A DNA stretch of 60,274 nucleotides, the filler included. It is 8 parts of 8 records of this genome, joined end to end, with 100 filler letters (N's around TTAATTAATTAA, not from the genome) between each part and the next. Parts side by side here need not be neighbours in the genome. Positions count along the whole stretch, not along the records: positions 42,784 to 52,978 come from DRR723986_14437; 7 more parts are not named here. One strand, 5' to 3'. The position numbers and the translations under genes are program-made. The notes beneath the pieces are model-generated. The model was not told where the DNA came from. It saw only the letters and a list, made by a program, of their open reading frames with translations, and ran no database searches. Positions 18,968 to 54,539 of this stretch are shown one piece after another (the stretch's first letter is position 1; each line of letters starts with the position of its first letter).

Positions 18968-19154
18968 CTTGTTTGCGGCTCAGTCTTTAGTACCTGGTCT
19001 CTCGGTTTTTTGGAGCGGCTTGAGCGCTTTGAGCCCTGCGCATGGCTTGGTCTCNNNNNNNNNNNNNNNNNNNNNNNNNNNNNNNNNNNNNNNNNNNNTT
19101 AATTAATTAANNNNNNNNNNNNNNNNNNNNNNNNNNNNNNNNNNNNNNNNNNNN

Positions 19155-21939: not shown

Positions 21940-22174
21940 GGTAACTGCGTATCCTGAAAGCGGGCAAAAGTAGGCTGGTTGCATGGTATCCGGACTGTTC
22001 CGGATGGCCAAGATACTTGCCTGTGGTCGGGTTTGTCAGTAAGATTCGCGGTCTGTTTCTGGCCGGGCTTGATTGTGCACGGTCTTTTCAATTGATTCAA
22101 ACATGCGGTGCCTGGCACCTGGGCAGCAAAGATGCCCCGTGATCAGGTAGCGGCATGACCTAACGAGGTTCGCC

Positions 22175-25407: not shown

Positions 25408-25507
25408 NNNNNNNNNNNNNNNNNNNNNNNNNNNNNNNNNNNNNNNNNNNNTTAATTAATTAANNNNNNNNNNNNNNNNNNNNNNNNNNNNNNNNNNNNN
25501 NNNNNNN

Positions 25508-34802: not shown

Positions 34803-34902
34803 NNNNNNNNNNNNNNNNNNNNNNNNNNNNNNNNNNNNNNNNNNNNTTAATTAATTAANNNNNNNNNNNNNNNNNNNNNNNNNNNNNNNNNNNNNNNNNN
34901 NN

Positions 34903-35267
34903 CCCTGAAAACTGGAACGGCCAGCATGCCATGCCCTGTCCAGACAGCTGACAAACTGAATAACGGAACCATCCCGGCGAATCAACGCGTGTGCAGACAC
35001 CTTCAGCTCTGCGATCGTTTCAAAATAGGGGTGCGCAGCAGTATCCAGACAGTTACAGAAAAAATTCTCGATGTGCGGGCCGCCAAACTGTTCCGGCGGC
35101 AGGCTGATGTTGTGAACCACCAGCAGTGAGATACAGGAACCGTCCGGGCGGGGACCAAAATTGGGCGACGGACACCAACGCACGCCGGGGAACCGGCCAC
35201 TGGAACGCAAAAGTGCTGCCGCATCTTTCAGGGACTGTGGGTGATGATCGTTCTGGATACTAGACAA
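34903..35267 (-). CDS. ampD: 1,6-anhydro-N-acetylmuramyl-L-alanine amidase, 3' truncated
   Basis: SPNFGPRP, LLVVHNISLPP, VSAHALIRRDG, RAWHAG.S. Confidence 0.93.
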
Positions 35268-35372
35268 CGTGTTTCCATCGGCGCAGGGGACTCATGCAGA
35301 TGATTGAATCACAAAGCGCCCATGGATGCCACGACGTCGCCGGTGCCCTGCGCGGGCACTCAGTACCGGAGA

Positions 35373-37673: not shown

Positions 37674-37710
37674 GTGGATGCTCCGGAATCGATCAGCTGA
37701 TGGTACTTAA

Positions 37711-38736
<1,026 letters not shown>

Positions 38737-38752
38737 TCCAGTCCCGGAATAA

Positions 38753-39094
38753 TCAGCGGCCTCCAGAGGACAACAGCCGATCCATCTCCTCAAGCGCTGA
38801 GATCAGCTCACGGCCGGACTGCTCACGCCCACGGAAATGCTCTTCTGCCATGGGCGCAATACCAGATACCTCTGGCAGCGCGTGACCGGCTTCCACCAGC
38901 GCCTTCATTTTTTCAAGAAACACGAACTGCAGCCACTGGGTGAAGTCCATGGTATCCAGGCAGAACGGCTGGGTACTCTGGAACGCCTCCGGTGGCAGGC
39001 TTTCTGTCTGCCAGACACCCAGTTGCCGAAGTTCAATTTCAATCTGCAGCAAACCGTCGGTCACCTGATCCAGGTGGCGTGCTTTTTCACTCAT
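38753..39094 (-). CDS. yqcC: YqcC (DUF446) family protein
   Basis: STQPFCLDTMDFTQWLQFVFL and IAPMAEE motifs; start ATG 39094. Confidence 0.85.
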   Translation of the reverse strand: MSEKARHLDQVTDGLLQIEIELRQLGVWQTESLPPEAFQSTQPFCLDTMDFTQWLQFVFLEKMKALVEAGHALPEVSGIAPMAEEHFRGREQSGRELISALEEMDRLLSSGGR

Positions 39095-39104
39095 GGGATT
39101 CCTC

Positions 39105-39902
39105 TCAGTCTGCCAATGGCTCCAGCTCAACAGACTCCCCATGCAGCACTCGGTATAGATCCTCATACTGGCGTGTGAGCGTGTGTTTCGGAGCCATGTG
39201 AATCAGCGGTTGGCGACTCTGGTGTGATTCTTTCATCTTGACGGAACTGGACAGGCACACCGGCAGCACCGGCAACCCCTCCTCCGTCAGCTCCCGAACC
39301 AACTGCCTGGGCAGGCTCGCCCTTGGCTGGAACTGGTTTGCAATGATGCCCTCAACAACCAGCTCCTCATTATGATCCTCCTGCAATTCGCGGATTTCAT
39401 GGAGGATGTTGTAGAGCGCCTGACGTGAGAAATCATCGCAGTCGAACGGGATCAGGCAGCGCTGGGCAGCAATCAGGGCAGAACGGGTGTAGAAATTCAG
39501 GGCCGGAGCGGTATCGATATAGATCTCATCGAAACTGTCGCTGAGCTTTTTCAGGAACTCCCTGAGCTTGTAGATCTTGTGCTTGGCTTCGAGTTTGCGT
39601 TCCAGAAAATCCAGCTCAGGGCTGGATGGCAACACGTACAGGTTGTCGAATGACGAGGCGTGTACAAACTCGTCAGGTCGACGATTGAAGACACTGAAGG
39701 CGACCGTCTGCTCCAGCAGATCGGCAACGGTATCTTTCAGCTCAGCCGCCGGCTTGCCCAGCAGGTAGTGGGTGGAGTTGCCCTGCGGGTCCAGATCCAC
39801 CACCAGGGTACGCTTTCCTCTTGCGGCGCTGATGGCCGCCAGATTACAGGTGATACTGGACTTGCCAACGCCACCTTTCTGATTGAATACAACCCGTCTC
39901 AT
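39105..39902 (-). CDS. ParA/Soj family ATPase (orphan)
   Basis: NQKGGVGKS deviant Walker A, VDLDPQGNST, IDTAPA. Confidence 0.9.
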   Translation of the reverse strand: MRRVVFNQKGGVGKSSITCNLAAISAARGKRTLVVDLDPQGNSTHYLLGKPAAELKDTVADLLEQTVAFSVFNRRPDEFVHASSFDNLYVLPSSPELDFLERKLEAKHKIYKLREFLKKLSDSFDEIYIDTAPALNFYTRSALIAAQRCLIPFDCDDFSRQALYNILHEIRELQEDHNEELVVEGIIANQFQPRASLPRQLVRELTEEGLPVLPVCLSSSVKMKESHQSRQPLIHMAPKHTLTRQYEDLYRVLHGESVELEPLAD

Positions 39903-39945
39903 GTCGTCTCTCCAATGGCCTTTATCGTTATTAATCCCTTTACCG

Positions 39946-40644
39946 TTACCATCCCATCACAGCTTTAACAAACGGAATGGTTAAACGTCGCTGGGCCTGC
40001 AGCGAATTCTCATCCAATGTATCCAGCAGCCCTAGCAGATCACCCAGCTTTCTAGGGGCCCTGCGCATGATGAAGCCGGCAACATCCTCACTCATCACCA
40101 GCCCGCGCTGCTCTGCCCGGGCCATCAGGATTCGTTGCCGATCCTCATCCCGGTACACGCCCAACTGAATGAGCAAGCCATGCGCCAGACGAGATCCCAG
40201 GTCTGCCAGTCCGAACGGCAGCGAAGCGGGCACCTCAGACAGACTGACCACCAGCAGGCCATTACGATCCAGCACCCGGTTGTACAGGTGGAAAACCGCC
40301 TCCTCCCAGCCGGGATCACCCGCGGCATGCTCCAGATCGTCAAGACAGATCACATCATGACTGTCCAGGCCCGCCAGGGCGTCCGGGCCGAACGGCAGCA
40401 GCTCGACAATGCTGATGCAGACGGCGGTTTTTCCCATCTGCTCGGACTCATGGCAGATCGCCTGCAACAGATGACTTTTGCCGGTATCGGAATCGCCACA
40501 GATCACCACTACCGGAAGCCCCGACGGCTCCCGGCACACCAGCTCCAGCCGCTGTGCGGCCGAACGGTTACGGTCGCCGTGAAAGTTGTCGAAGCGGGCA
40601 TCGTCCCGGAGCTTGACCCCCAATACCATTTGTGAGGCTTTCAT
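39946..40644 (-). CDS. hda: DnaA regulatory inactivator Hda
   Basis: Clamp-binding-like QMVL N-terminus, FDNF, GKSHLLQA, LDD, WEEAVFHLYN, DLGSRL, RRLTIPFVK; start ATG 40644. Confidence 0.92.
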   Translation of the reverse strand: MKASQMVLGVKLRDDARFDNFHGDRNRSAAQRLELVCREPSGLPVVVICGDSDTGKSHLLQAICHESEQMGKTAVCISIVELLPFGPDALAGLDSHDVICLDDLEHAAGDPGWEEAVFHLYNRVLDRNGLLVVSLSEVPASLPFGLADLGSRLAHGLLIQLGVYRDEDRQRILMARAEQRGLVMSEDVAGFIMRRAPRKLGDLLGLLDTLDENSLQAQRRLTIPFVKAVMGW

Positions 40645-41201
40645 GACCGCTTCGCCCTCCAGGCCCGCAAACTCCAGACTGCAACATAATGGCCCCCGCT
40701 CACCAGCGCGCTGACAGCAACCAGCCAGATCCCGGTGTCGATGACCCAGGGCTGCATGGGCAAACCCGCCAGCAGGATGATAATGGCGAGCGCCACCAGT
40801 ATCTGGACAAACGTGTTGATCTTGCCCGGAATACTGGGTTCCATATCGAAGCGGCCGATGCCGTAATGAAAAGCCAGGCCGCCGCAGACAATGACAAGAT
40901 CCCGACCCAGCACCAGGGCAAACAGCCACAGCGGAAGTACACCGGTAATGGTGAGCATGAGGTAGGCCGAAATCAACAGCGCCTTGTCCGCGAGAGGGTC
41001 GGCCACAGCGCCAAGCCGGGAGCGCCAGTTGAAATGACGAGCCAGAAACCCGTCAAAGGCATCGGTCAGTGCGGCAACGAAGAATATCACCAGAGACAGC
41101 CGGTAGTTACCTTCCAGCAGCGCGCCGGCGAACGGCACGATCAGCACCATTCGCAGGAATGTCAGTGCATTCGGGATCCAGCGCCACTGCTTAGAACTCA
41201 C
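40641..41201 (-). CDS. CDP-alcohol phosphatidyltransferase (PgsA-like)
   Basis: IPNALTFLR, TDAFDGFLAR...G..ADPLADK signature. Confidence 0.92.
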   Translation of the reverse strand: MSSKQWRWIPNALTFLRMVLIVPFAGALLEGNYRLSLVIFFVAALTDAFDGFLARHFNWRSRLGAVADPLADKALLISAYLMLTITGVLPLWLFALVLGRDLVIVCGGLAFHYGIGRFDMEPSIPGKINTFVQILVALAIIILLAGLPMQPWVIDTGIWLVAVSALVSGGHYVAVWSLRAWRAKRS

Positions 41202-41222
41202 CGGGCTGCCTCCATCAAGCCA

Positions 41223-42563
41223 TCAGCTTCGGTCGCCGCCAGTGGCGCCGGGAGCGGGTTGCCAGCGGTAATAAAGTACCTGGTACAAAGACTCAAAAGC
41301 CTGTTCGGCATCCTGCTCATCGCCCGGAGCCAGGGGCTGATAGCTGAACCCAGCCGTCGAAGCACTATCCTGCGCATCCGTTCCGGCCGGTGCTTCGGTT
41401 TCATTGCGGGAACCGGGCTCGCCTGTTTGCGCCGCACCATCCCCGTCCGAGCCAGCAGTCTGGCTGTTCTTGCTGGCCGTTATCGGCTCTGCAGGCTGCT
41501 CCGCCGGCACAAATCGTGCGTCCAGCGCGATATGCTCCTTCAACTGGTCAAGTTCTCCAGAGAATGCTACCTCCACGGTCAGCCGGTTGCCACGAACCCG
41601 TGACGCACCAACAGACACTACCGGAGTCATGTCCTGCAGGGCCCGGGTCACCTGACCGTAATCTGCCAGCGTCGTTACACCCTCAAGCACCATATCAACT
41701 TTCGGAGCCTCACCCGCCTCGCCGGCTGTAACCGCATATCGGCTGGCGTATTGCTCTGTCCAGCGATCGATTAAAGCTTGCGCCAACTGTTCCGGCGTAT
41801 CGGCATTGACCGACTGCTCACCCGCATCGAGCCCCATGCCTTCAACCACCCAGCCTGCGCGCCATTGGCCGCCGGAACGACTGATACGCACCAGAGCCAG
41901 GGCGTCGTGGGACAGATCGTCTGAAGCTTGTTCGATGCGGCCGACAAACTGGCCCCACAAATCCGACAGCAAGGCCCGGTCACCGGCATAGGTCTCCGGC
42001 GGGAAGGCGATGGGCAGACCGCGATCGGCCGCTGCTGATAAGAGATGCTGGGCCCAGAGCCCCTCGTTACTGCCCGGCGCTGAATCCGCTGCACGGGTCA
42101 GTAATTGCCGGTCTCCCCGGTCTTCCACGGCAATCCAGGCCAGCGTCAGGGGGCGGTTGGCGCCCCATACCGGCGCCTGCACAGACGCCAGCGCGCGGTT
42201 AACCCCCACGGCCCCGAAACTCATCTGCAAACGCGACTGCCCCGCGGTACGGTTCACCTGATAAGACAGCAACATGGACTCGGCGTCTGCCAGTACCTCG
42301 TCTATCCCTTCGAGTTCCAGCACCTCACGGGTCCCAGAAACCCTCACCATTACCTGACGCAGCCCTTCAGCGTATCCGGCCTTCAAGGCATCCGCCGAGG
42401 TGCCTGCAACCGGAACATCGGCCGTGTAAAGTCCCGACACGCTGACCGCCGATGCCGGGCCGGCCGAGAACACCCAACAGACTGCCGCCAACAGAAACGC
42501 AGCAACTCGCCCGTTCCTGGCTGTATTCACTGATTCGGTCATGAAACACCTTGCCATTCCCAT
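41223..42563 (-). CDS. DUF2066 domain exported protein
   Basis: Signal peptide; LY...V, V.VRVSG, PVWGANRP..L.W motifs; typical position upstream of hda. Confidence 0.82.
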   Translation of the reverse strand: MGMARCFMTESVNTARNGRVAAFLLAAVCWVFSAGPASAVSVSGLYTADVPVAGTSADALKAGYAEGLRQVMVRVSGTREVLELEGIDEVLADAESMLLSYQVNRTAGQSRLQMSFGAVGVNRALASVQAPVWGANRPLTLAWIAVEDRGDRQLLTRAADSAPGSNEGLWAQHLLSAAADRGLPIAFPPETYAGDRALLSDLWGQFVGRIEQASDDLSHDALALVRISRSGGQWRAGWVVEGMGLDAGEQSVNADTPEQLAQALIDRWTEQYASRYAVTAGEAGEAPKVDMVLEGVTTLADYGQVTRALQDMTPVVSVGASRVRGNRLTVEVAFSGELDQLKEHIALDARFVPAEQPAEPITASKNSQTAGSDGDGAAQTGEPGSRNETEAPAGTDAQDSASTAGFSYQPLAPGDEQDAEQAFESLYQVLYYRWQPAPGATGGDRS

Positions 42564-43251
42564 GGTTGGCGCACAGGATACACCATCACCAGAGCCGAGA
42601 GTAGCAAGCGCAGGTTGCAGTCAGGCAATCTGAAACCGGCAATATTGCCTGTGCTCCCAATTCCATTTGGAGCCCCCGTGCGCNNNNNNNNNNNNNNNNN
42701 NNNNNNNNNNNNNNNNNNNNNNNNNNNTTAATTAATTAANNNNNNNNNNNNNNNNNNNNNNNNNNNNNNNNNNNNNNNNNNNNAACAGCCCCCACCAACA
42801 AATTGCAATCAATCACGAACTCAAGGCAAGTCAAAAAGATTCAGCGGAGCAAATTTTAGCAAACCATTGCAATTTTGCGCCTCCTACGCAAGGCGCAACG
42901 TTCGTCTACAGAAAAGTGCGCCGTATGCTGTAGCGACAGAACTCTGACCAACTGTTGTTTGCTCAATTAACCGCGTTACCCACTAGACTTAAGTCCCTGA
43001 GACTTGAGGCTGTCTCAGCGCATATTCACTGATGCATAAACAATTAACAAAAAGAAACAGCAAGCCACAATCCAATCGGCCCCAGGTAAATGTGCCGCAA
43101 ACACTGAGAAGGGGCGAAGCGCTCAAGCCTCAGGTCAGGTAACCCGCAGATTAATCAGTCCACAAGAGCCGCTCAAACCACAAGCCATTCAGCCCACAGA
43201 GATGCAGTGTTTAGACCCTGAAAAGTGAAATGTTAAGTCTGTCAGGAATGC

Positions 43252-44721
43252 TTAACGCGAGAGTTTGGCCCACTCAAATACTTCAATATAACCTTTTGCC
43301 GAACGCAGCGCCGAGTTGTCCGCCGTCATGCCGTTGGCAATCGCAGTATGCAGTGCCGGCTTGTTGTAATACAGGTTTAATGCACGCCCAATAACGTCTA
43401 CCAAAGCCTGTACGTTAAGTTCGTCAAACAGGAAGCCATTGCCCTGGCCGGTGGTTGCGTCAAATTCCTGGACGGTGTCCGCCAGTCCGCCCGTTCGACG
43501 AACTATTGGAATGGTGCCATATTTGAGGCTGTACATTTGGTTAAGTCCACAAGGCTCAAAACGCGAAGGCATCAGGAAAAAATCTGAAGCGGCCTCAATG
43601 CGATGTGAAAGCTGCTCGTTGTATCCGATTTCAATCATTGTGCGCGGATGTCTGCGCAGGTTAAGATCGCGGAAATAGTCTTCGTATTCGCTGCCGCCAC
43701 TGCCGAGCATTGCCAGACGGATGGGGTAGAGGTGCAGCAGGTATTCGATGGCGTCACGAACAACGTCTATGCCCTTTTGGTCAGTCAAACGCGTGACCAT
43801 GCCAATTAAGGGCATGTCGGCATATAACTCGTCCTCGGGGACCTTGGAGCGGCGCAGAAACTCAAACTTGTTCTCGCGCTTTTTGTCGATGTTGTTAACA
43901 TCGTAGTTAACATAAATCGATTTATCCGTTGCCGGATCCCAGACGTCGTAGTCCACTCCGTTTAAGATTCCAACCAGGTCACCCGCGCGTTCGAGTAAGA
44001 CACTTTGCAGACCGTGGCCCAACTTTGAGTAACGAATCTCGAGTGCATAGGTCGGGCTGACCGTCGTTACCTTGTCGGCGAACATGATGCCGGCTTTGAG
44101 GGCGTTAACAGATCCGTGGAACTCAAACCAGCTCATGGAATAAAACTGTTCCATGCCGATTTGCGCCAGGTAGAGCGTTTCCTGCGGACTAAACATGCCG
44201 TGGAAGGCCATGTTGTGAATACTTTGAACACCCACGGTATCGCGAAACAGTTCGTGGTCGCGATAGTGAATTTTTAGGAAAGGCATCGTAAAGGCGGTGT
44301 GGTAGTCGTTAGCCAGAATCGCGTCTGCCTTAAAGTTGAGCGCCTTGGCAAGTTCAAAAACTGCGCGGCTCAAAAAGATGAAACGACGGTTGTTGTCAGC
44401 AAATCCATCGGGATTGCCATAAATGCCTTTGCGATCAAAATAGTCGGCCGACTCAATAAAGTAGACAGGCACCGAAGAGTCGGGGAGCGTGGCCGTCCAA
44501 ACCTGACCATATTCGGTCCACGAGCCCATCGGCACGCTGATCGTCAGGTTAAGCGCTTTGAGGCCGTATTTGGCAACATCGATATCGCCGTATTTGGGCA
44601 TGACGACCATGGTGCGATGCCCGAGGGATTCCCACTCTTTGGGAAGGTAACCGGAGACGTCTGCGAGTCCACCAGCTTTGGCAAAGGGGAAAACTTCGGC
44701 AGAGGCCAGGACGATATTCAT
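43252..44721 (-). CDS. glgA: Glycogen synthase (ADP-glucose, GT5)
   Basis: EVFPFAKAGGLADV (KxGG), ANDYHT, SIHN, TTVSPTYA, GILNGVD, RLTDQKG, MPSRFEPCGLNQ. Confidence 0.95.
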   Translation of the reverse strand: MNIVLASAEVFPFAKAGGLADVSGYLPKEWESLGHRTMVVMPKYGDIDVAKYGLKALNLTISVPMGSWTEYGQVWTATLPDSSVPVYFIESADYFDRKGIYGNPDGFADNNRRFIFLSRAVFELAKALNFKADAILANDYHTAFTMPFLKIHYRDHELFRDTVGVQSIHNMAFHGMFSPQETLYLAQIGMEQFYSMSWFEFHGSVNALKAGIMFADKVTTVSPTYALEIRYSKLGHGLQSVLLERAGDLVGILNGVDYDVWDPATDKSIYVNYDVNNIDKKRENKFEFLRRSKVPEDELYADMPLIGMVTRLTDQKGIDVVRDAIEYLLHLYPIRLAMLGSGGSEYEDYFRDLNLRRHPRTMIEIGYNEQLSHRIEAASDFFLMPSRFEPCGLNQMYSLKYGTIPIVRRTGGLADTVQEFDATTGQGNGFLFDELNVQALVDVIGRALNLYYNKPALHTAIANGMTADNSALRSAKGYIEVFEWAKLSR

Positions 44722-44837
44722 GCGCGTACGTAATAAATATGTAACTGCTTGGACAGCGTAAAATACGCAAAATTCAGCGGATTTGGGCTTTGTGCGTCAC
44801 TAAAGGGCGCATGTGACGTACTGCAGCCGGGCGGGTA

Positions 44838-45707
44838 TCAGTCGGGAACGAATGGTGCAGCCACGTGCACAAAATCTTCCTCAAATTTTGCGGCGGCACG
44901 CTGCGCATCGGCCTGTGAGCCAAAAAATCCAAAGAGTGCCGAGCCGCTGCCGCTCATTCCGGCAAAAAGCGCCTCAGACTCGTAGAGCGAATCGCGGATG
45001 GCCTGAACGCGCGGATGCTCCTTGAAGACAACGGACTCAAAGTCATTGTGCAGGCCGGTACGGAGCGCCTGGGGCTGTGTGGCTGCGTCTTTGAGTACGG
45101 CGCGGAAATCTGTGGCTGTGCGTGTTTGCGCTCCGGCGGAAATATTGAGCGCCCGATATGCCCAGGGCGTGGAAACGTGGATTCCGGGATGTACAATTAC
45201 TGTCCACCATGGAATCTCAAAATCAAATCGCTCAAGTTCTTCGCCGCGGCCTGTGCCGACAGCAGCGCGGCTATCGAGAAAAAATGGTACGTCGCTGCCC
45301 AAACCTTCGGCGACTTTGCGCAGGGTGCAGGCGGGCGCTTCTACGTCCCAGAGGTCCGGCAGCATGCGCAGAATTGCCGCTGCGTCACTACTTCCGCCGC
45401 CGAGGCCGGCGCCGCTGGGAATATTTTTTTGGAGTGAGATGGCGGCACCGTGATTAACACCCAAAGCCATTTGCAGGCGTTCGGCGGCCTGGTAGGCCAG
45501 GTTTTCGCGGGCGGGAATTCCCAGGTCGGGAGTGCAGCACAAACTAATTGTGCCGCCGTCATTCGCTGCGCGGCTGAGCAGGAGCGAGTCAGCCAGGCGT
45601 ACACGCACGAAAACGGTGTTGATTTCGTGATACCCGTCGTCGCGCTTGCGAAGGACTTCCAGTCCCAGATTCAGTTTTGCAAAGGCGGCCGTAGCGATGT
45701 GCTGCAT
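44838..45707 (-). CDS. ispE: 4-diphosphocytidyl-2-C-methyl-D-erythritol kinase
   Basis: AKLNLGL, GYHEI, KNIPSGAGLGGGSSDAA, GSDVPFF, GRGE, STPWAY, NDFE, MSGSGS; start ATG 45707. Confidence 0.95.
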   Translation of the reverse strand: MQHIATAAFAKLNLGLEVLRKRDDGYHEINTVFVRVRLADSLLLSRAANDGGTISLCCTPDLGIPARENLAYQAAERLQMALGVNHGAAISLQKNIPSGAGLGGGSSDAAAILRMLPDLWDVEAPACTLRKVAEGLGSDVPFFLDSRAAVGTGRGEELERFDFEIPWWTVIVHPGIHVSTPWAYRALNISAGAQTRTATDFRAVLKDAATQPQALRTGLHNDFESVVFKEHPRVQAIRDSLYESEALFAGMSGSGSALFGFFGSQADAQRAAAKFEEDFVHVAAPFVPD

Positions 45708-45765
45708 AGCCCTCGATTTTCGCTCTGGATTTTTAAAGTCATTGATGTTGCGTAATTTTACAAAT

Positions 45766-46437
45766 ATGCAAAATTCTCCTAACATCACTTATGTTCAGGA
45801 AATCCAGCGTAAGGGGATTCACCTGGCAATGGTTTTGATGCCGATCATCTACCTGCAGGTGGACCAGACAACTGCGCTGTTGATCCTGGGCGGCATGCTG
45901 TTTATTTCACTCGTTATTAACGTCGGGATGTACTACAACCAGGCCATCGCCGCGTTCATGCGCCGTAGCTTTGCGTCGATATTACGACCGCATGAGCGCG
46001 ACAAAAAGCGATTTGTGCTAAATGGCGCCAGTTGGGTATTGATTTCGGCCTTCGTTTGTGTCCTGATTTTTCCGCGCGTCATCACCGTCGTGGCGTTTAC
46101 GAACCTCGTGTTGGCGGATATCGCCGCTGCGCTTATCGGGCGCCGCTATGGACGCACACCATTTTTAGGCAAAAGCCTGGAAGGCACAACAGCTTTTTGG
46201 GTCACGGCATTTGGCGTGGTCGGTTTTGTTGGCTGGCTGATTAGTGCGCCCTGGCAATTTTATCTGATAGGCGCGATAGCTTCATTTATAGGTGGCATTG
46301 TGGAGGTGCTCTCTCCGCGCCTGCGCATGGATGACAATCTCAGCATTCCCATGAGCATCGGATTCAGTTTCTGGGGCATGGTACTTTTGCTGGAACCGGC
46401 GGTCCGCGATCAGATTTTGAACGCTTTTATGGACTGA
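45766..46437 (+). CDS. CTP-dependent polyprenol/diacylglycerol kinase family membrane protein (SEC59/DGK1/VTE5-like)
   Basis: EIQRKGIH, LRPHE, AD.AAALIGRRYG, KSLEGT, DDNLSIP motifs; start ATG 45766. Confidence 0.85.
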   Translation: MQNSPNITYVQEIQRKGIHLAMVLMPIIYLQVDQTTALLILGGMLFISLVINVGMYYNQAIAAFMRRSFASILRPHERDKKRFVLNGASWVLISAFVCVLIFPRVITVVAFTNLVLADIAAALIGRRYGRTPFLGKSLEGTTAFWVTAFGVVGFVGWLISAPWQFYLIGAIASFIGGIVEVLSPRLRMDDNLSIPMSIGFSFWGMVLLLEPAVRDQILNAFMD

Positions 46438-46606
46438 CATTCGCTTCTACATCAAAAACTCATGCTGTTCGCCTTTTGCTAATTGCTTGATCTGCGTTTG
46501 ACTTCAAGTCTGTGTTAAGGCCGCCTCAGCTGCTGTCCGCTGCTTTTGGGCTGTCCGGAATGTGTAATGCAAGCATAGGTCGGGGAAAACTTTTTGAAAA
46601 AACTGA

Positions 46607-46632
46607 GTAACTAATTCCGAAAACGGGTGTCT
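46607..46632 (+). promoter_or_regulatory. Putative ECF-sigma promoter (GTAAC-N17-GTCT)
   Basis: GTAAC 46607-46611 and GTCT 46629-46632 with a 17-nt spacer, A/T tracts upstream, structured element and terminator downstream. Confidence 0.45.
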
Positions 46633-46639
46633 TACTTTT

Positions 46640-46752
46640 ACCACCGGAGATCAGTGGATATAATTGGTGGAACGGCCTTTAAGGCCCAGCCACCGTGAAT
46701 ATAGATCCTCGATTAACGAAGGAATGCCGTAAGGTGTTCCTTCGTTTGTTTT
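46640..46752 (+). ncRNA. Candidate ~110-nt small RNA (or 14-aa peptide mRNA) with intrinsic terminator
   Basis: Nested stems GGAT/ATCC, GGTGG/CCACC, GGCCT/AGGCC; terminator AACGAAGGAATGCC-GTAA-GGTGTTCCTTCGTT-TGTTTT (46715-46752). Confidence 0.5.
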
Positions 46753-47054
46753 AAACAGAATTATCGTTGAATGGTTGGGGAGCGGGCGGCACTCACTTCA
46801 CAAGAGTTGTTGGTTTTTGTAGTGGAGTACTCGCGACGCTGTGGGTTTGTATCACACATTGCCGAATTGACACCTGGGGCTCTACGGCGCATCACCACAG
46901 GCTTCTGACTTAACACTGGCGGGCATGAATTTTAAGCAAAGCCATTTTGTTTGTCACTGATGTTAAAACCTGACGTCACCGAGTTGCCTCCAGAAATTGA
47001 GTCACAAGTCCCAATCCAGTCCGCTGCCGCATCCGCCAATTTTTGAGCCTAAAA

Positions 47055-47118
47055 TGTCAATAGTGTGTAAAGCCTGACAGTCAAAACTGTCAAGTGTTAA
47101 GAGAACTTGACAGTTTTG
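47055..47118. promoter_or_regulatory. Paired palindromic sites (TGTCA-N15-TGACA twice), putative enhancer-binding-protein UAS
   Basis: TGTCA 47055/TGACA 47075 and TGTCA 47088/TGACA 47108, 33 bp apart; the second is a perfect 14-bp inverted repeat (47082-47095 / 47105-47118). Confidence 0.6.
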
Positions 47119-47153
47119 CAGCGTAAAGATCGCTAAAACACTCACCTAAAAAG

Positions 47154-47169
47154 TGGCACGCGTTTTGAT
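47154..47169 (+). promoter_or_regulatory. Sigma-54 (-24/-12) promoter
   Basis: TGGCACG-CGTT-TTGAT versus consensus TGGCACG-N4-TTGCW (C-to-A at -12); predicts a start near 47180. Confidence 0.65.
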
Positions 47170-47179
47170 ATACTTATAG

Positions 47180-47769
47180 TGTGTTTGTCTGAAGCCGGAA
47201 AAATTAGGCGGGTGTTGTTAGACATTCGTCAGACCGACAAACATCTGCGAAACTGCTGCATGAACGGTGGCACCGTCGCGAAGCGTCGCCAGTGATGCGC
47301 TGCAGTTTTAAGAGCTCAGGCCGGCATTCAAAAAATTGAAATATCGTGTGATATAAAAATATCGGTTCCGGACGTGCGCGTCTGGCGAAACGTTGGAAAA
47401 CAGCAAATCCGTGGACGGGCTTGCGTATCGCCAGACAACTACAAATAACGAGACGGGGGTAGCTCGTCCGGAACCGGACTAAAACAGCACACAAACGATG
47501 CACGTTGCCAAAGGCGCATGTGCCGTGTAAACACTATTCGAATAGAGCGCATACTTTAGTCGAATGTCAATAACGCGGTGCCGCCAGGAATCTTGTCAGG
47601 AGCACGTGAAAATGGTTGAGGGGACACTTCCATTTTCATATATAACTGTCAAGCAACTTACGCCGCGTTTGTGTGCTGTTTCTTTTTAAATCTGGGGGCA
47701 GGTTTAGATAAAGATTAGGGTAAAAACCAGAGAAGCTGTTAGCCTAAGGCTAACAGCTTCTCTGGTTTT
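47180..47769 (+). ncRNA. Candidate large structured non-coding RNA, family unknown
   Basis: No + strand ORF of 60 aa or more; helices 47181-192/47229-244, 47250-261/47295-308, 47363-374/47465-476, 47380-388/47428-436, 47482-497/47666-681, 47607-615/47630-638; crossing helix 47211-228/47561-576; promoter in front, terminator behind. Confidence 0.65.
47723..47769. terminator. Bidirectional terminator, perfect 22-bp hairpin
   Basis: AAAACCAGAGAAGCTGTTAGCC-TAA-GGCTAACAGCTTCTCTGGTTTT; T-tracts on both strands; lies between the candidate RNA (+) and the aldehyde dehydrogenase (-). Confidence 0.85.
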
Positions 47770-47820
47770 CCGGATCAGCGCGCGCGCCTGTGCGGCGCGT
47801 GCGCTTTATAAGTCCGCATC

Positions 47821-49308
47821 CTAGTCGTCGTAGTTGTCAATCTGAGCACGCTGCAGCGCACCCGAGAAATCAACATACACGGCTTTCCACTCAGTGAAGA
47901 TCTCGAACGCTGTCCAGCCGCCTTCACGGTGACCGTTACCAGTGCCTTTGATACCACCAAATGGCATGTGTGCTTCAGCGCCAATGGTTGGACCATTGAT
48001 GTAGCTAATACCGGCTTCCAGATCGCGCATCGCCACAAAAGCTTTGTTGACGTCTTTGGTATAGATCGATGAAGACAGACCGTAGGCTGAATCGTTGAGC
48101 GTCTCAACGGCTTCGTCAAAAGAGGAAACTTTGGTGACCGAGAGAACCGGCCCAAAGATTTCTTCCTGGAAGATGCGCATCGAACGCGTCACATTGCTGA
48201 AGATCGTCGGCATGTAAAACAGGCCGTTAGCCAGGGCCGGATCGCTGCTGCGCTCGCCGCCCAGGACACATTCTGCGCCTTCTTCACGACCGATTGCCAC
48301 GTATTTCTCAACTTTTTCCAGCTGACGTTCATTGATCGTTGGTCCCATCTGCGTGGAGCTCTCCAGGCCTGGGCCGATTACGATCGTTTTGGCGCGTTCA
48401 ATCAGTTTATTCAGGAACTCATCGTGAATTGATTCATGCAGAATCAAGCGCGATGTAGCTGTACAGCGCTGACCAGTTGTACCAAAAGCGCCCCACAGAA
48501 TTCCGTCGAGTGCCAGGTCCAGATCGGCGTCGTCCATTACGATCGAAGCGTTTTTGCCACCCATTTCCAGCGAGCATTTTTTGTTCTGTGCACCGCATTT
48601 TCCGGCGATTGCTTTGCCAGTTTCAGTGGAACCTGTAAAACCAACCAGCTTGATGTCTGGGTGATCCACAATTGCACTTCCTGCATCAATCGCGCCATGG
48701 ACTACATTAAAGACTCCGGCAGGCAAGCCGGCTTCTTCCATAATTTCAGCGAAAATATTGCCGGAGTGTGGCGATTCTTCGGATGGCTTGAAGACAATTG
48801 TGTTGCCACAGACCAGGGCTGGAATAATTTTCCAGGAAGGAACGGCAATCGGGAAGTTCCAGGCCGTAATGATTCCGCAAATACCAATTGGCATGCGGAA
48901 GCTCAGGTTCATCTTGTTGGGCATTTCCGATGGAGCGTTCATGCCAAACAAACGGCGGCCTTCCGTCGCTGCATAGTAGCAGGTGTCAATTGCTTCCTGA
49001 ATGTCACCTGTCGTCTCAAAAACCGGCTTGCCCATTTCACGGGTCATGATTTTAGCCAGCTCAGCTTTGCGGCGATTGAAGATGTCACCGGCGCGGCGTA
49101 GAATGTCGCCACGAGCCGGAGCAGGCATCAGCTTCCAGGCGCGCTCGGCGGCCTTGGCGGCTTTGACGGCGGCATCGACGTCTGCGGCGTCTGACTGTGG
49201 AAATGTTCCAATCAGATCGGTGCGATCCGCAGGATTACGGTTTTCAAACTGCGCGCCGGAAGCGGCGTCGCTCCATGCTCCGTTGATGTAATTCTTGTAG
49301 TCGGCCAT
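47821..49308 (-). CDS. NAD(P)-dependent aldehyde dehydrogenase
   Basis: ITAWNFP, KPSE, FTGSTETG, LEMGGKN, GQRCTATSR, EEIFGPV, YGLS, PFGG.K. Confidence 0.95.
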   Translation of the reverse strand: MADYKNYINGAWSDAASGAQFENRNPADRTDLIGTFPQSDAADVDAAVKAAKAAERAWKLMPAPARGDILRRAGDIFNRRKAELAKIMTREMGKPVFETTGDIQEAIDTCYYAATEGRRLFGMNAPSEMPNKMNLSFRMPIGICGIITAWNFPIAVPSWKIIPALVCGNTIVFKPSEESPHSGNIFAEIMEEAGLPAGVFNVVHGAIDAGSAIVDHPDIKLVGFTGSTETGKAIAGKCGAQNKKCSLEMGGKNASIVMDDADLDLALDGILWGAFGTTGQRCTATSRLILHESIHDEFLNKLIERAKTIVIGPGLESSTQMGPTINERQLEKVEKYVAIGREEGAECVLGGERSSDPALANGLFYMPTIFSNVTRSMRIFQEEIFGPVLSVTKVSSFDEAVETLNDSAYGLSSSIYTKDVNKAFVAMRDLEAGISYINGPTIGAEAHMPFGGIKGTGNGHREGGWTAFEIFTEWKAVYVDFSGALQRAQIDNYDD

Positions 49309-49517
49309 AAAATCGGTCCTGTCCTGTACATGTCCTCAGAAAGCAATTCAATTCAAACGTAAAACGAGTATTTCGGATACTGCAAATTATCATGTAATTT
49401 GCTCGCCGCCGAACGTTCCGTCTCTGCGGAATTCGGCAAAATATTTTTTGGCTGCAGCACAAACGCTGCGCGACTTCCGTTCAGGCCTTCAGCTAAAGCC
49501 CACACAAATTGCCTATA

Positions 49518-51662
49518 ATGACGCGTCCCCTCCGCCTGGCATTCCTCTGGCATCAGCATCAACCCTACTACTTAAACGACGGTGAATTTCTTTTGCCCTG
49601 GGTGCGCCTGCACGGCGTCAAAGACTACGTTGACCTGACATTACTTCTGTCAGAATTCCCGTCGCTAAAGCAGAGTTTTAATCTGGTACCCTCGCTGCTG
49701 CGCCAGATAGAGCAGTATGTGAACGGCTCCGCGCAGGACGCTGTCCAGCGTCTAACATTGCTGGATGCTGCTAATTTGCAGGAGCGCGACAAGCGTGAAA
49801 TTCTCAAGCGTTTTTTCCTGTGCAATACCGAGCGCATGGTCGACCCCTGGCCGCGCTACAGCGAATTGTACCAACGCAGTCGCGATGACGAATCAGCATT
49901 GCGCGAATTTGGCCCGGCGGAATGGCGTGACCTGCAGGCCTGGTATAATTTGACCTGGGTTGGCCCGCTGATGCGTGAGCGCTACAAGCTTCACAGCTAT
50001 TTTGAGCGTGGCCGCGATTTTACGGAAGCTGATAAAATTGCGATTCTGGATGTCCACGCGTGTATTTTGGCCGACATCATTCCCACTATGCAGCAGGCGA
50101 TTGACAGCGGTCAGGCCGAAGTCAGCGTCTCACCGCTCTACCATCCAATTGTGCCACTCCTGGCCGATTCAGATGTCGCCAAAGTTGGTCTCCCGCAAGC
50201 TCCCATGCCACGCCGTTTCAGTTTTGAGCAGGACGCCCACGCGCAGGTGCAGCGCGCACATGCCGTTTATCAGGATACATTTGGCCGTCCGCCACAGGGC
50301 ATGTGGCCATCTGAGGGATCGGTTAGCGACGCAACCCTTAATGCCATCGCTGCGGCCGGTTTTAGCTGGCTTGCCACCGATGAGAAAATCCTGCAGCGCA
50401 CGCTTGGAAACGCGTATCAGAGTAGCGACAAATTTTTTCCGCAGCGCTTCCGCACAGACTCAGGGCCGTTAACCGTATTTTTCCGCGATAACGCACTGTC
50501 TGACGCAGTGGGATTTCATTACGCCCGCCGCGCAGCCTACGATGCCGCCGACGAGTTTGTGGGGCATTTGGCAAACATTCGCAACGAAATTGTTAAACAG
50601 CATGGCGAAGCGGCCCTGGAAGAAGCGGTCGTTCCAATCATTCTTGACGGCGAAAACTGCTGGGAATACTACGAGAATAACGGACTGCCATTTTTGCGGG
50701 CGCTCTACTCGCGAATTGTTGAGCGTTCCGACATGCAGACGGTGACCTTCAGTGAAGTGCTGCAGTCACAAGCTTCTTCACAAGTGGAGTCACAAGCGGA
50801 GTCACAGGGGCGGCACACTAAAACATTAAACACCATCTTTCCCGGCTCGTGGATTAATGCCGACTTCGATATTTGGATTGGCTCAAAAGCCGAGAATGAC
50901 GCCTGGGATTTGTTGCACAGCGCCCGCAGCGTTTTTGAATGTGTTAAGTGTCTGTTAAGTCCGGCGCAGGCCGAAGAGGCTTACGTCACGCTCCTGCTCG
51001 CCGAAGGTTCGGATTGGTTCTGGTGGTACGGCGACGATCACGAAGCTGAAAACAAAGAAATGTTTGACCAGTTGTTTCGCGCGCACTTAAACAAATTCTA
51101 TCGGCTGTGTGGCTTGGCTGCGCCACGTGCTCTCGGGCGTTCGCTGATGTTGGCCCACTCGCCGGTTTCCGGTCCAAATGTACGCCCACAACAGGAATAT
51201 CTGGGAGCAACTGCCGCTGCGTGGCCACGCGACTTAAATGCCTGGGACGGCGCGGGCAGTGTCATGTTAAACAAAGACAATACTTCGGCCATGCATCAGG
51301 CTGAAAGCAGTGTCGACAGGCTGCTGTTTGGTACTGCGGGTGAATACGTGCACTTCTGTTTTGCGCCGGGTGTTAACTCCGCCACGGACTTTGTGTGGGT
51401 TAAGTTTGAAGGCGCCAAAGCCCTCACCTTGGCACTCAGAACTCACGGAACAGTCGATGAAGTCACCGGCGAATTGCTCGACGAATTTCCCGGGCGCGCC
51501 TCAATGCTTAAAGTTAAACTCAATCAACTGGCTCCCAATGTACAGGCTGACGGTCGCACTACTCTGGACGTTCACGTTATGACACGCGAAAAAGACGATG
51601 CACGCCGCCGCATTCCGCCAAGTGATTCCATGGAGTTGACAATCCTGCCGCGGCAGACCTAG
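49518..51662 (+). CDS. Glycoside hydrolase family 57 (amylopullulanase/alpha-amylase type)
   Basis: LWHQHQPYY, LPWVRLHG.KDY, PLYHPI.PLL, GMWPSEGSVS, ILDGENCWEYY, AEGSDWFWW. Confidence 0.92.
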   Translation: MTRPLRLAFLWHQHQPYYLNDGEFLLPWVRLHGVKDYVDLTLLLSEFPSLKQSFNLVPSLLRQIEQYVNGSAQDAVQRLTLLDAANLQERDKREILKRFFLCNTERMVDPWPRYSELYQRSRDDESALREFGPAEWRDLQAWYNLTWVGPLMRERYKLHSYFERGRDFTEADKIAILDVHACILADIIPTMQQAIDSGQAEVSVSPLYHPIVPLLADSDVAKVGLPQAPMPRRFSFEQDAHAQVQRAHAVYQDTFGRPPQGMWPSEGSVSDATLNAIAAAGFSWLATDEKILQRTLGNAYQSSDKFFPQRFRTDSGPLTVFFRDNALSDAVGFHYARRAAYDAADEFVGHLANIRNEIVKQHGEAALEEAVVPIILDGENCWEYYENNGLPFLRALYSRIVERSDMQTVTFSEVLQSQASSQVESQAESQGRHTKTLNTIFPGSWINADFDIWIGSKAENDAWDLLHSARSVFECVKCLLSPAQAEEAYVTLLLAEGSDWFWWYGDDHEAENKEMFDQLFRAHLNKFYRLCGLAAPRALGRSLMLAHSPVSGPNVRPQQEYLGATAAAWPRDLNAWDGAGSVMLNKDNTSAMHQAESSVDRLLFGTAGEYVHFCFAPGVNSATDFVWVKFEGAKALTLALRTHGTVDEVTGELLDEFPGRASMLKVKLNQLAPNVQADGRTTLDVHVMTREKDDARRRIPPSDSMELTILPRQT

Positions 51663-51768
51663 CCTCAGCTCTGTGGCTCATTCGAATGGAAGGATGATCT
51701 TCTTCGCACTGTCTCACTTATCAGTCTTGAGGCTTCCACGATTGGATGCCGCTCTCACATGCACCAGG

Positions 51769-52332
51769 TTATTGTTTGGGCTCGTAGTTAATGAAGTCCG
51801 GCTGAGAAATAAAGGTTTCTGTTAACTCAAGCAATGCATCTGCATATTTTGCAAACTCCGCAGCACTTCTGGATGAAAATACTACGTAGGCGACTGCACC
51901 TTCCATTTGCACATACAGAACGCGCTCGAAGTTTTTGTAGATTCCGCCGCTATAATCCATTATCACATATTCATGTTCACCTACTTTGCCACGCTTTTTC
52001 TGACTGTGTTTAAACTCGGGTGACTCCTGTTCGAATTCATTGACTGCAAACTGGATGAACTTGTTAATATCCGTGTGGTTTGCTGCCGCCAGGCTGGCAT
52101 ACATAACAACGGGCGATCCGGCCCAGGTTTGTCCCAAAGGGTATAAAACACAGTGCAGCCCCGATGATGCACCAGACTTATTATCGAGCACCCAACCTTC
52201 CGGCGCATCAATTTGAAAAGCCGCCGTTGGCCCGTAGACAATTCCAGCGCAATATCTAAGCGAGTCAGCGTTTGCCCAAGCGGCGCACATGTTAATAGTC
52301 AATACTGTAATCAAGGTCATAAGTATCTTCAT
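51769..52332 (-). CDS. Hypothetical secreted protein
   Basis: AAGGGAG RBS; signal peptide ending ANA; 187-aa ORF. Confidence 0.7.
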   Translation of the reverse strand: MKILMTLITVLTINMCAAWANADSLRYCAGIVYGPTAAFQIDAPEGWVLDNKSGASSGLHCVLYPLGQTWAGSPVVMYASLAAANHTDINKFIQFAVNEFEQESPEFKHSQKKRGKVGEHEYVIMDYSGGIYKNFERVLYVQMEGAVAYVVFSSRSAAEFAKYADALLELTETFISQPDFINYEPKQ

Positions 52333-53078
52333 TGTCGCAGCTCCCTTATTTGTTGTATCGGTGTTCGCTGGGGTAGCGTGCGTAAGTTAGTCAAAACGTG
52401 CGGATTCCCAATCAACACAGCACGTTATTGGGCAGCCGCAGGAGAGTTTGCAGTGAGTTCATTTGATTGCAGCGCCCTCGCTGACTGCGGGCTTGCCTTT
52501 TGATTGTTTTGTTTGTCTTTGGGCTTAAAGCCGAGCCGAGGTATGCCTCGGCTTTACGGTTTGAAGTCTGCCCAAAGTCTTAGAGACGCGGATTAAGAAC
52601 TACACCCGTGAGTTTTTTATCAAACTGGCAGCTTGATCATCGGTCTCAGAGTCGCGGACCGGCACTTGTTTCCACCTGGATTCGGAGTAACAATTGGCCC
52701 TGACAACCAACTTATTGAGAATTCGACAAATGCAATGCAAAATGGATATGCGGTCGGTGGTTTGGAGTTTGTGTGGCAGAGACTGGATTTAGCGGTTGAG
52801 GATTTGAAAATTCCAAAATGTAAAACAGGGTCGAGCCCTTAGGGCTGGACCCCGTTGTTTTGAAGACTGAAATTGAGTGAATCCTGGATAACACCTGCCT
52901 TAAAATTCTAACTTTTGAGACTATCTCAAACACGTCAGGCTTCGCGTTCAGTGACAAACAAGAAACTCAAAAAGCAAGNNNNNNNNNNNNNNNNNNNNNN
53001 NNNNNNNNNNNNNNNNNNNNNNTTAATTAATTAANNNNNNNNNNNNNNNNNNNNNNNNNNNNNNNNNNNNNNNNNNNN

Positions 53079-54539
53079 ATCACCTCGGCGGTCATCACGA
53101 CGATCATCACGACGGTCGCCTCTACGCTCCCACGGACGATCACCGCTATCTCCTCCATCTCGGCGATCATCATCACGGCGATCATCATCGCGCCAGGGCT
53201 GACGGCCTTTGTCAAAGGCACTGCGCTCACCGCGCGACTTAAACGAACGGCCACCGGCACCCATGCGTTTGCCCGGCTTAACCGGACGGCGTTCTTCGTC
53301 GCCCTTAAACACATTTTCGGAAAGTGGGAAGGTCTCTTCACCAACTTCAGCGCCGGCAAAAATTAACACAAATTCGCCTTTAAACTTTAAGGTATCGAAC
53401 TTGCTTTTGATTTCCAGAAGTGAACCGTAATGCAGCGTCTCATAGCTACTTGTTAACTTGCAACCCAGGAAGGCGCGCCGCGCAGGCATAACCGTCGCCG
53501 CAGCTTCCAACAAAGGTTTAAGTCGATATGGTGTTTCCAGCAGAACAACTGTGCGCGACTCACGTGCAAGTGCGGTTAACTCCTCCACACGCACGGATGG
53601 TTCGCGGCTCAGGAAACCACCAAAGATAAACTGTTTAGTTGGCAGGCCACTGCACACCAGACCGGCAAGCACACTCGACGCACCCGGAACGGCTTTAACA
53701 GGCACTTCGTGTTTAATAGCCAGGCGCACCAGAATTTCACCTGGATCAGCCAGCAGAGGTGTGCCCGCATCGGAAATAAGCGCTACTTCGGAGCCATTTT
53801 TTAACTCTTTGAGAACGTCCATGGCGGACTCGTTCTCATTGTGTTCATTAAGCTGCACCAATTCTTTGTTAATACGGTGTTCGTGCAGCAGGCGCGCGGC
53901 GGGTTTAATTTCCTCACAAACAACAAAGTCGGCTTTTTTAAGCGTTTCGAGGGCGCGCAGGGTAATATCGTCAATATGGCCAATCGGCGTCGAGACGATA
54001 TGCAGGGTTCCATAAGATTTGGAAGCCGGTTGTACAGTTTCAACTTTTTTGGTCTCAAACAGATCCTGAATCGGCGTATCGTCCCACTCTGCGGCGGATT
54101 CCTCGCCGCCTGCCTGTGTAGTTTCAGGACTTACTTCCGCAGTAGTTTCGGGGACATCCAGCGTTTCGCCGTCCGAATTGGCAACAGGCAAGCTTTCAGA
54201 AGCAGGTGCGCTATCGGTCTCAGGCAGGGCCGCCGGGTCCGCTACTTGCGCGGGTGAGGATGCCTCCTCCACTGAACTTAAATCCGCAACAGCATCTGAA
54301 GAATCAACTGGAACTTCATCAGAAACTACCGGCTGCTCGGCCGGTTCCGGCGTTTCCTGCGGAGATGAATCGCTCCCGGCAGGCTGGGAAGTCTGACTTG
54401 CCGCATTAGGATTTGTGTCCGGCCCAGGCTGCGCCGCGCTTTCCTCCGTTGGATTTGCGGAAGATTGATCCGCCGACTGATTAGATTCCTGCGGCGTAGA
54501 TTGCGAGCCGTCCAGGTTTGACTCGTTAGATTCTGGCAT
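53079..54539 (-). CDS. rsmI: 16S rRNA (cytidine1402-2'-O)-methyltransferase with long acidic N-terminal and Arg/Asp-rich C-terminal extensions, 3' truncated
   Basis: GTLHIVSTPIGHIDDITLRAL, VALISDAGTPLLADPG, VPGASS, F.GFL, ETPYRL, KGEFVL. Confidence 0.9.

Follow-up and report, generated by a model that had tools for sequence, protein, structure and literature searches.

A candidate large structured RNA with a putative sigma-54-type promoter in a family of uncultured bacteria

Relation to described RNA classes

Bacterial RNAs longer than 500 nucleotides (nt) with an elaborate conserved structure are few, and most of them are without a known biochemical function. We analysed a stretch of DNA of 60,274 nt, filler included (the window), and consider it probable that positions 47180 to about 47690 on its + strand are the gene for a structured non-coding RNA (ncRNA) of about 510 nt that is not represented in Rfam, is transcribed independently under the control of sigma-54 and an activator, and acts in trans. 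The closest described systems are the OLE, ROOL, GOLLD and raiA motif RNAs, the RNAs expressed from -24/-12 promoters, i.e., CrcZ/CrcY (activator CbrB), GlmY/GlmZ (GlrR) and Qrr (LuxO), and finally 6S and other RNAs that sequester polymerase or another protein.

The candidate is like OLE, ROOL, GOLLD and the raiA motif in size and style only. It falls in a similar size class (510 nt in the window and about 720 nt in the homolog from genome G718), a coding signal is lacking, several domains are closed by long helices, and invariant nucleotides are found in loops and junctions. However, the present RNA has no sequence or structure match to these classes in Rfam 15, and no associated protein genes of the oapA/B/C type accompany it. 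While the described classes occur in hundreds to thousands of species, this RNA family is so far known from a single family of uncultured bacteria, in which three of four genomes carry it, and from one contig of the window. Its conserved sigma-54-type promoter with upstream dyads is a further difference from these classes, as we know of no report of such an arrangement for any of them. Symmetric palindromic kissing loops are reported to bridge the chains of OLE and GOLLD (PMC12286853); a conserved loop with a self-complementary hexamer in domain 1 of the present RNA resembles these loops, which we treat as a lead and not as a finding.

With CrcZ, GlmY and Qrr the locus would share the layout of a stand-alone RNA gene with a -24/-12 promoter and its own terminator, as well as dyad repeats at the usual upstream position of an activator. 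RNAs of that type measure roughly 100–400 nt. They are smaller than the RNA described here, they are proteobacterial, and they carry repeated short protein-binding motifs, not long nested helices; the Rfam models of CrcZ, GlmY/Z and Qrr do not match here. The GlrR site reads TGTC-N10-GACA, and the dyads of this locus (TGACA-N8-TGTCA and TGTCA-N15-TGACA) differ from it in spacing. With 6S RNA and other sequestering RNAs the candidate would have in common that it is a trans-acting structured RNA, for which shape and a few invariant nucleotides matter. It differs from 6S RNA in that no 6S model matches, in being three times larger, and in being predicted to be inducible instead of growth-phase constitutive. 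CrcZ is reported to be an RpoN-dependent RNA that sequesters Hfq (PMC4063720), and it may by analogy serve as a precedent for a sigma-54-driven protein sponge. Taken by its features, the locus seems to represent a new RNA family that unites the size and style of the ornate RNAs with the promoter architecture of the CrcZ, GlmY and Qrr type and is a member of neither group.

Rfam 15 (4227 models, including RNase P, tmRNA, signal recognition particle RNA, 6S, OLE, ROOL, GOLLD, raiA, HEARO, CrcZ, GlmY/Z, Qrr, and group I and II introns) gave a single match at the gathering threshold in the whole window, an L31-Gammaproteobacteria ribosomal protein leader (RF03157, 39.6 bits) at 22102–22169 (+) on another contig. 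At E ≤ 10, the region 46400–47900 drew 16 matches, all far under gathering: ten fall on the end hairpin at 47723–47769, which attracts spurious microRNA-like matches, three on the upstream palindrome, one is SorY (16.5 bits vs 111) and two lie outside the stretch. The homolog loci at E ≤ 1 produced one irrelevant match (18.6 bits vs 270), and ARAGORN found no tmRNA or tRNA. An earlier sequence-only reading of the window had assigned the stretch to no known RNA family, and this assessment holds for the window and for its homologs. Supplementary motif lists aside, none of the papers listed on sigma-54 with large or structured ncRNAs describes it, and no paper on Kapabacteria with noncoding RNA was found.

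Homologs, fold and compensatory changes

Two single-sequence covariance models, R1 for domain 2 and R2 for domain 3, were built after plain sequence searches had failed. Over 150 genomes of the order of genome G078, R2 gave full-length matches in two, G715 (86.6 bits) and G710 (84.5 bits), and in both the adjoining stretch was matched by R1 (99.9 and 104.4 bits, respectively). Domain 2 of a third genome, G718, was scored by R1 at 18.1 bits; its domain 3 is not detected by R2. The model R3, built from G710, G715 and G718 with the window left out, scores domain 2 of the window at 108.5 bits, and over 150 genomes of the order it had no matches beyond the three from which it was built. Each genome contains one copy of the locus (one strong R1 match, the next best about 15 bits). 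The family in question is that of G715, and it lies in the order of a metagenome-assembled genome (MAG) labelled Chlorobiota by NCBI.

The RNA occupies a fixed slot, downstream of a membrane-protein gene and convergent with an aldehyde dehydrogenase gene. Between the window and G710/G715, proteins of the neighbourhood are identical at 83–84% (GlgA), 71–74% (IspE-like kinase), 61–62% (GH57) and 56–58% (a hypothetical protein), and the RNA itself at 69% (338 of 491 positions, window vs G710); G710 and G715 share 93.5% (464/496). G718 has a gap of 1263 nt in the same slot with TGGCACG-N4-TTGA, the domain-1 loop motif, domain 2 and the closing helix of domain 3, and its homolog also has an additional 3′ domain and its own terminator; the RNA there would measure about 720 nt. 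This extra domain of about 220 nt (L141 1257–1490) holds a second hairpin, whose 9-nt loop is one letter off the domain-1 loop, and a terminator hairpin at 1446–1486. In G721, the fourth genome of the family, the flanking genes are only 18 nt apart (L142 1152–1170), with neither the RNA locus nor a small RNA-like element that lies upstream of it in the window (46655–46752); the two were either lost there or never gained.

Outside this family the searches returned no homolog. BLAST over all 254 genomes of the order found only G710, G715 and two matches of 28–30 nt, and a strict promoter-plus-loop pattern run over a 401-genome sample of the class matched G715 alone. The gap around the RNA, compared by BLAST with 41 relatives of the gammaproteobacterium-like genome G001, gave two 28-nt matches that we judged to be chance; four genomes of the Fibrobacterota–Chlorobiota–Bacteroidota (FCB) group with the best listed aldehyde dehydrogenase matches contained no homolog, and a 301-genome sample of that phylum yielded five matches of 26–41 nt, again judged chance. 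No homolog was found by nhmmer among 82 and then 128 loci. An aldehyde dehydrogenase scan of genome contigs revealed relatives of at most 70% identity among the matches listed, without synteny and with no member of the family of G715 among them, while membrane-protein searches returned a single locus (48% identity) from metagenome contigs and identities of at most 50% in the 401-genome class sample. Among the sequencing runs listed as matching the locus none is an RNA run; three DNA metagenome runs match it in part (0.06–0.10 of words shared). They contain short low-depth contigs 97–99% identical to 47096–47469, and runs X1 and X3 contain pieces about 85–90% identical at 46591–46735 and 47026–47215. 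The latter pieces take in both dyads and promoter and reach 35 nt into the RNA, with no -24/-12 difference among those listed. These pieces indicate that the locus exists in other samples and that it has a further relative outside the genomes searched.

Narrow taxonomic range and long terminal inverted arms around structured inserts are also traits of RNAs from mobile or defence systems, for example the msr-msd of a retron, a guide RNA associated with a transposon or part of a group II intron. We attach hardly any probability to such an origin: none of the genes on the 10.2-kb contig encodes a reverse transcriptase, transposase, nuclease or recombinase, the Rfam models of RNAs of this kind find no match, and the single-copy locus keeps its synteny across genomes whose proteins differ by 12–40%.

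The fold of the RNA consists of three domains, and each sequence folded alone gives the same plan:

47180–47312 (+): domain 1, from the consensus fold and pair counts; own z-score -1.01
47182–47189/47236–47243 (+): helix P1 of domain 1, from the consensus fold
about 47250–47261/47295–47308 (+): second helix of domain 1, from the consensus fold
47266–47273/47283–47290 (+): stem of the domain-1 hairpin, with a 9-nt loop at 47274–47282
47363–47476 (+): domain 2, with an outer helix, an inner helix and two small hairpins
47482–47681 (+): domain 3, a closing helix of 16 base pairs (bp) around two arms

The 9-nt loop of domain 1 contains a self-complementary hexamer, is invariant in all four sequences and has a second copy in G718. 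In domain 2, the outer helix is formed by 15-nt arms (47363–47377/47462–47476, 93% complementary) with a perfect 12-bp core, and the inner helix has a perfect 9-bp core (47380–47388/47428–47436) within 13-nt arms (47380–47392/47424–47436); a conserved single-stranded G-rich stretch is found on the 3′ side of the domain. Domain 3 is closed by perfect 16-nt arms (47482–47497/47666–47681) around one long hairpin of variable sequence and another arm with an invariant G-rich loop (about 47613–47630). All long arms lie where they had been placed from the sequence alone, and GTTGC/GCAAC and GTGAAAATGG/CCATTTTCAT, named at the same time, are included in the minimum-energy fold. The ATGTGC/GCGCAT helix is not, the stretch being paired otherwise.

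The stretch 47180–47769 folds better than its shuffles, with RNAfold z-scores of -8.50 on the + strand and -8.09 on the - strand and none of 100 shuffles folding as well. With 60 shuffles each, 47180–47715, from which the end hairpin is excluded, scores -5.30 (+) and -4.02 (-), domain 2 (47358–47481) -4.08 (+) and -6.61 (-), and domain 3 (47480–47684) -5.19 (+). The stability signal is located in domains 2 and 3; two upstream control stretches are at chance (-1.47 and -1.91). The homologs in G710 and G718 score -4.59 (100 shuffles) and -4.15 (20 shuffles), respectively. The consensus fold reaches -149.7 kcal/mol on the + strand vs -129.1 kcal/mol on the - strand and is better on + in every domain; G-U pairs in the homologs take the place of G-C or A-U pairs of the window. 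The promoter element and the U-tract at the end of the RNA also point to the + strand.

A MAFFT alignment of the window, G710 and G715 analysed with RNAalifold gave a structure of 152 pairs, in which 93.2% of the cells of the three sequences are paired. Double-sided changes occur in 12 of the 152 pairs vs 5.3 ± 1.8 in shuffles (0 of 500 shuffles reach 12), and controls with the 3′ partner slid by 1–3 columns have 0–3 such pairs. With effectively two lineages in the three-sequence alignment, these counts may be taken as support and not as proof. The domain-2 inner helix keeps all nine of its pairs in the three closer sequences through changes of U-A to C-G and of A-U to U-G to C-G. With its invariant 6-bp core used as the anchor, the closing helix of domain 3 has six pairs in G718 that are changed on both sides and one that is broken, and in the same genome the outer helix of domain 2 has lost three outer pairs and gained six inner ones, so that its length is kept. 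In G710 and G715 the sequence of the long domain-3 arm is unrelated to that of the window, yet a long hairpin is formed again. Base pairs thus appear to be maintained by compensatory substitutions in the syntenic homologs, and conservation follows the helix arms and loops instead of a reading frame.

A feature acting at the level of DNA, or a drifting spacer, with no RNA function (palindromic protein sites, replication or recombination signals, or remnants of mobile repeats) would be compatible with longest arms that are perfect and sequence-invariant among three genomes, and with z-scores strongly negative on both strands, that of domain 2 being the lower on the - strand. We consider this very improbable, as nested, branched helices with G-U intermediates and double-sided changes preserve RNA pairing on one strand only, and the consensus fold is the better one on the + strand in all three domains. 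Furthermore, the single-copy locus has a fixed position between housekeeping genes, no repeats of it occur elsewhere in the window, and no relatives were found on plasmids or phages.

A conserved reading frame is absent from the stretch. The longest open reading frame (ORF) in the gap 46438–47820 has 99 amino acids (aa), and the short + strand ORFs have 38 aa (47179–47295) and 41 aa (47564–47689). None of the three was assigned to a Pfam family above its curated cut-off in a search at E ≤ 0.1; the sole match, of the 41-aa ORF to DUF2180, has an E of 0.043 and 14.4 bits vs a cut-off of 22.2. Of the nine indels that separate the window from G710, eight have a length not divisible by three, so they break the frame and exclude a conserved ORF, and the ORF sets of G710 and G715 differ from that of the window. 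The claim that 47180–47769 holds no credible ORF is in agreement with these results. One or more small proteins under sigma-54 control, with the structure serving as an untranslated region (UTR), would be in line with the two short ORFs and the sub-threshold DUF2180 match. We give this explanation next to no weight, given that the frame-breaking indels, the differing ORF sets and the placement of the conserved blocks in helices and loops speak against it, and the 41-aa ORF is not preceded by a ribosome-binding-like sequence.

Promoter, upstream dyads and 3′ end

The elements that flank the structured domains are as follows:

47154–47168 (+): sigma-54-type -24/-12 element TGGCACGCGTTTTGA, i.e., TGGCACG, 4 nt, TTGA
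47075–47118 (no strand assigned): upstream dyad repeats at about -62 to -105, three alternating TGACA/TGTCA half-sites
47679–47690 (+): U-rich tract immediately behind the closing helix, which probably marks the conserved 3′ end
47723–47745/47747–47769 (no strand assigned): 23-nt perfect hairpin with an A-run before and a T-run after it, bidirectional terminator-like

The -24/-12 element is the only match in the window, and transcription from it is predicted to start near 47180. TGGCACG (47154–47160), which includes the GG required at -24/-25, is the same in G710, G715 and G718, and all specified bases of the -24 and -12 blocks are identical in the four sequences. The -12 consensus of sigma-54 promoters is TTGC(W), 4 nt after TGGCACG, with the C strongly conserved. 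In this locus the spacing is right and TTG is present, and the C is replaced by A in 4/4 sequences; conservation of the TTGA variant argues for its being functional, but the deviation falls on a strongly conserved position. The -24/-12 element proposed by the sequence-only reading is present where it had been placed and is conserved, though its -12 block departs from the consensus and the element alone is not significant in 60 kb.

The dyads comprise an 18-bp dyad at 47075–47092 and a 14-bp perfect inverted repeat at 47082–47095/47105–47118, and their layout is a TGACA-N8-TGTCA overlapping a TGTCA-N15-TGACA within 47075–47112. They are nearly invariant in G710 and G715, while the spacer of about 35 nt between them and the promoter has diverged; G718 has TGTCA/TGACA half-sites at a different spacing. 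Activator sites of sigma-54 promoters usually lie about 70–150 bp before the start. We regard the dyads as a candidate site for an enhancer-binding protein, which would act as the activator. RpoN (Sigma54_DBD) is encoded in all four genomes of the family, along with 11–22 Sigma54_activat matches per genome. Conserved -24/-12 blocks and dyads with a diverged spacer in between form the pattern that would be expected for an activator-dependent sigma-54 promoter. A 10-nt word of the upstream dyad, AACTGTCAAG (47085–47094), recurs in domain 3 at 47644–47653, and this second copy is not conserved in G710 and G715.

The RNA could be real and structured and still be made from another promoter, of the sigma-70 type or by read-through, or act in cis or antisense with the aldehyde dehydrogenase gene. 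This is an unlikely explanation in our view, to which several observations lend themselves. A sigma-70-like GTGGCA-16-TATAGT overlaps the site, and the C of the -12 block is missing. However, the bases invariant in 4/4 sequences coincide exactly with the -24 and -12 blocks, which are spaced as for sigma-54, and TATAGT of the window is not kept, the corresponding letters being GTTGTG in G710 and GTTATG in G715. As to read-through, the upstream unit ends at a conserved terminator hairpin with a U-run (46715–46746). A relation to the aldehyde dehydrogenase is suggested by the constant position of the RNA beside and convergent with this gene, 25–130 nt from its stop, and by the lack of a separate terminator or own hairpin between the two genes in G710 and G715; the window does carry such a hairpin, and G721 has the aldehyde dehydrogenase gene without the RNA, which shows that the gene does not need it.

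We return to a promoter of the sigma-54 type and to the other end of the transcript it would produce. G710 and G715 continue after the domain-3 closing helix with a run of nine U or U-rich letters and reach the stop codon of the aldehyde dehydrogenase gene about 25 nt later, with no other hairpin in between. The conserved 3′ end is therefore placed near 47690, with termination probable at the U-tract behind the closing helix. The hairpin at 47723–47769, taken from the sequence alone as the boundary of the RNA, is missing at this position from G710, G715 and G718 and thus is not a conserved 3′ boundary; the 3′ end given at that time was off by about 80 nt. In the window, this hairpin is probably the terminator of the convergent aldehyde dehydrogenase gene and a backup stop for the RNA.

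Proposed function and genomic setting

We propose the following sequence of events. An enhancer-binding protein would bind the conserved TGACA/TGTCA dyads 60–105 bp upstream and turn on sigma-54 RNA polymerase at TGGCACG-N4-TTGA; the transcript would fold into its three domains, and transcription would stop at the U-tract after the 16-bp closing helix of domain 3. The RNA would then act in trans, most likely as a platform for sequence-specific binding by which a protein is scaffolded or sequestered or other copies of the RNA are bound. Across genomes that differ by 12–40% in their proteins, neither strand of the long helices varies, and several loops and junctions are invariant as well. This invariance suggests constraints beyond pairing, such as protein recognition or RNA–RNA contacts, and makes a binding platform, in the form of a trans-acting scaffold or sequestering RNA, the most likely role that can be read from the comparison. 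The earlier idea of an independently transcribed, regulated large RNA of an undescribed class is supported by the homologs and the conserved regulatory elements, and the locus probably encodes a real, previously uncatalogued, large structured RNA driven by sigma-54 and an activator.

A number of points weigh against this interpretation. Only four sequences are known, and since G710 and G715 are 93.5% identical, the lineages are effectively three. Domain 1 alone is not more stable than its shuffles. The structure used in the pair counts was derived from the same alignment, which inflates its edge over the controls, and non-standard cells number 31 of 455. Of the pairs in the two longest helices, 14/16 and 21/26 never vary in the three closer sequences, so these pairs are uninformative on pairing; the middle of the helix 47606–47615/47630–47639, judged by eye, is unpaired in G710 (3 pairs) and in G715 (2 pairs) and forms an internal loop there; and the comparison with G718, of which MAFFT misaligned domain 2, relies on hand-anchored helices. 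Regarding the promoter, the single mismatch of TTGA to the consensus concerns the strongly conserved C, 40 of 100 shuffles of the 60-kb window contain one or more matches to a relaxed pattern of the element, and the same site has a weak sigma-70-like reading (GTGGCA, 16 nt, TATAGT, 9/12). No second site combining dyad and -24/-12 element was found in the genomes of the family, where none of the dyad near-matches adjoins such an element, and the idea of an activator thus receives no support from a regulon.

A more far-reaching and rather doubtful proposal is that this would be the first signal-inducible ornate RNA: an activator would switch on an RNA of 510–720 nt that self-associates through its invariant palindromic hairpin loop and forms a higher-order RNA or RNA–protein particle for a stress or metabolic response in an uncultured FCB lineage. 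Self-association would take place between molecules in the window, G710 and G715, which have one copy of the loop, and possibly within the molecule in G718, which has two.

The locus would add an RNA with a conserved regulatory signature from a barely studied lineage. An activator-dependent promoter would point to a specific inducing condition and provide a handle for heterologous expression, and, if true, the reading proposed here would place RNAs under sigma-54 control outside Proteobacteria and in a size class other than that of small RNAs. In practice, work on the RNA is limited by its narrow distribution, with four sequences, and by the lack of a cultured host.

The genes on either side of the RNA and the joins of the window are listed below:

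45766–46437 (+): upstream neighbour, membrane protein without a Pfam or NCBIfam family; conserved left edge of the slot
47821–49308 (-): downstream convergent neighbour, aldehyde dehydrogenase (Pfam Aldedh, E 3.2e-173); conserved right edge of the slot
7257–7356, 12583–12682, 19055–19154, 25408–25507, 34803–34902, 42684–42783 and 52979–53078: linkers, joins between contigs

The RNA lies inside the 1.38-kb gap 46438–47820. The membrane protein is 69–70% identical to its orthologs in G710 and G715 and flanks the gap in G718 and G721 too; the aldehyde dehydrogenase is 88–89% identical in G710/G715 and 78–79% in G718/G721. The contig of the RNA (42784–52978, 10.2 kb) also carries glgA, an ispE-like gene, a GH57 gene and a hypothetical gene. 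Among the matches listed, its proteins are nearest to MAGs labelled Chlorobiota and Kapaibacteriota by NCBI, with identities of 69–70% for the aldehyde dehydrogenase, 42–49% for the membrane protein and 45% for GH57, and the FCB-group placement given from the sequence alone was right for this contig.

The window is composed of eight contigs with seven linkers between them, each consisting of 44 N, a 12-nt all-frame stop linker and 44 N, and ORFs called across them (e.g., 53031–54539) are unreliable at the linker end. The left-hand contig, 34903–42683, is 97% identical to G001, whereas the contig of the RNA is FCB-like, from which it follows that the source assembly is a mixed bin. The low-GC right part of the window is a separate contig, and the possibility that it is a gammaproteobacterial genomic island was rejected for this reason.

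The small RNA-like element at 46655–46752 (+) is situated just after the membrane-protein gene and has no Rfam match. It comprises a hairpin, a 19-nt single-stranded stretch (46695–46713), which is invariant in all four genomes, and the terminator hairpin with its U-run at 46715–46746. Pairing of the single-stranded stretch with the large RNA was considered and rejected, the predicted sites differing between genomes. The stems of the element show covariation when the window is compared with G718, and at 46637–46664 there is a sigma-70-like TTTACC-16-TATAAT; the element may be a small RNA or an RNA derived from a 3′ UTR.

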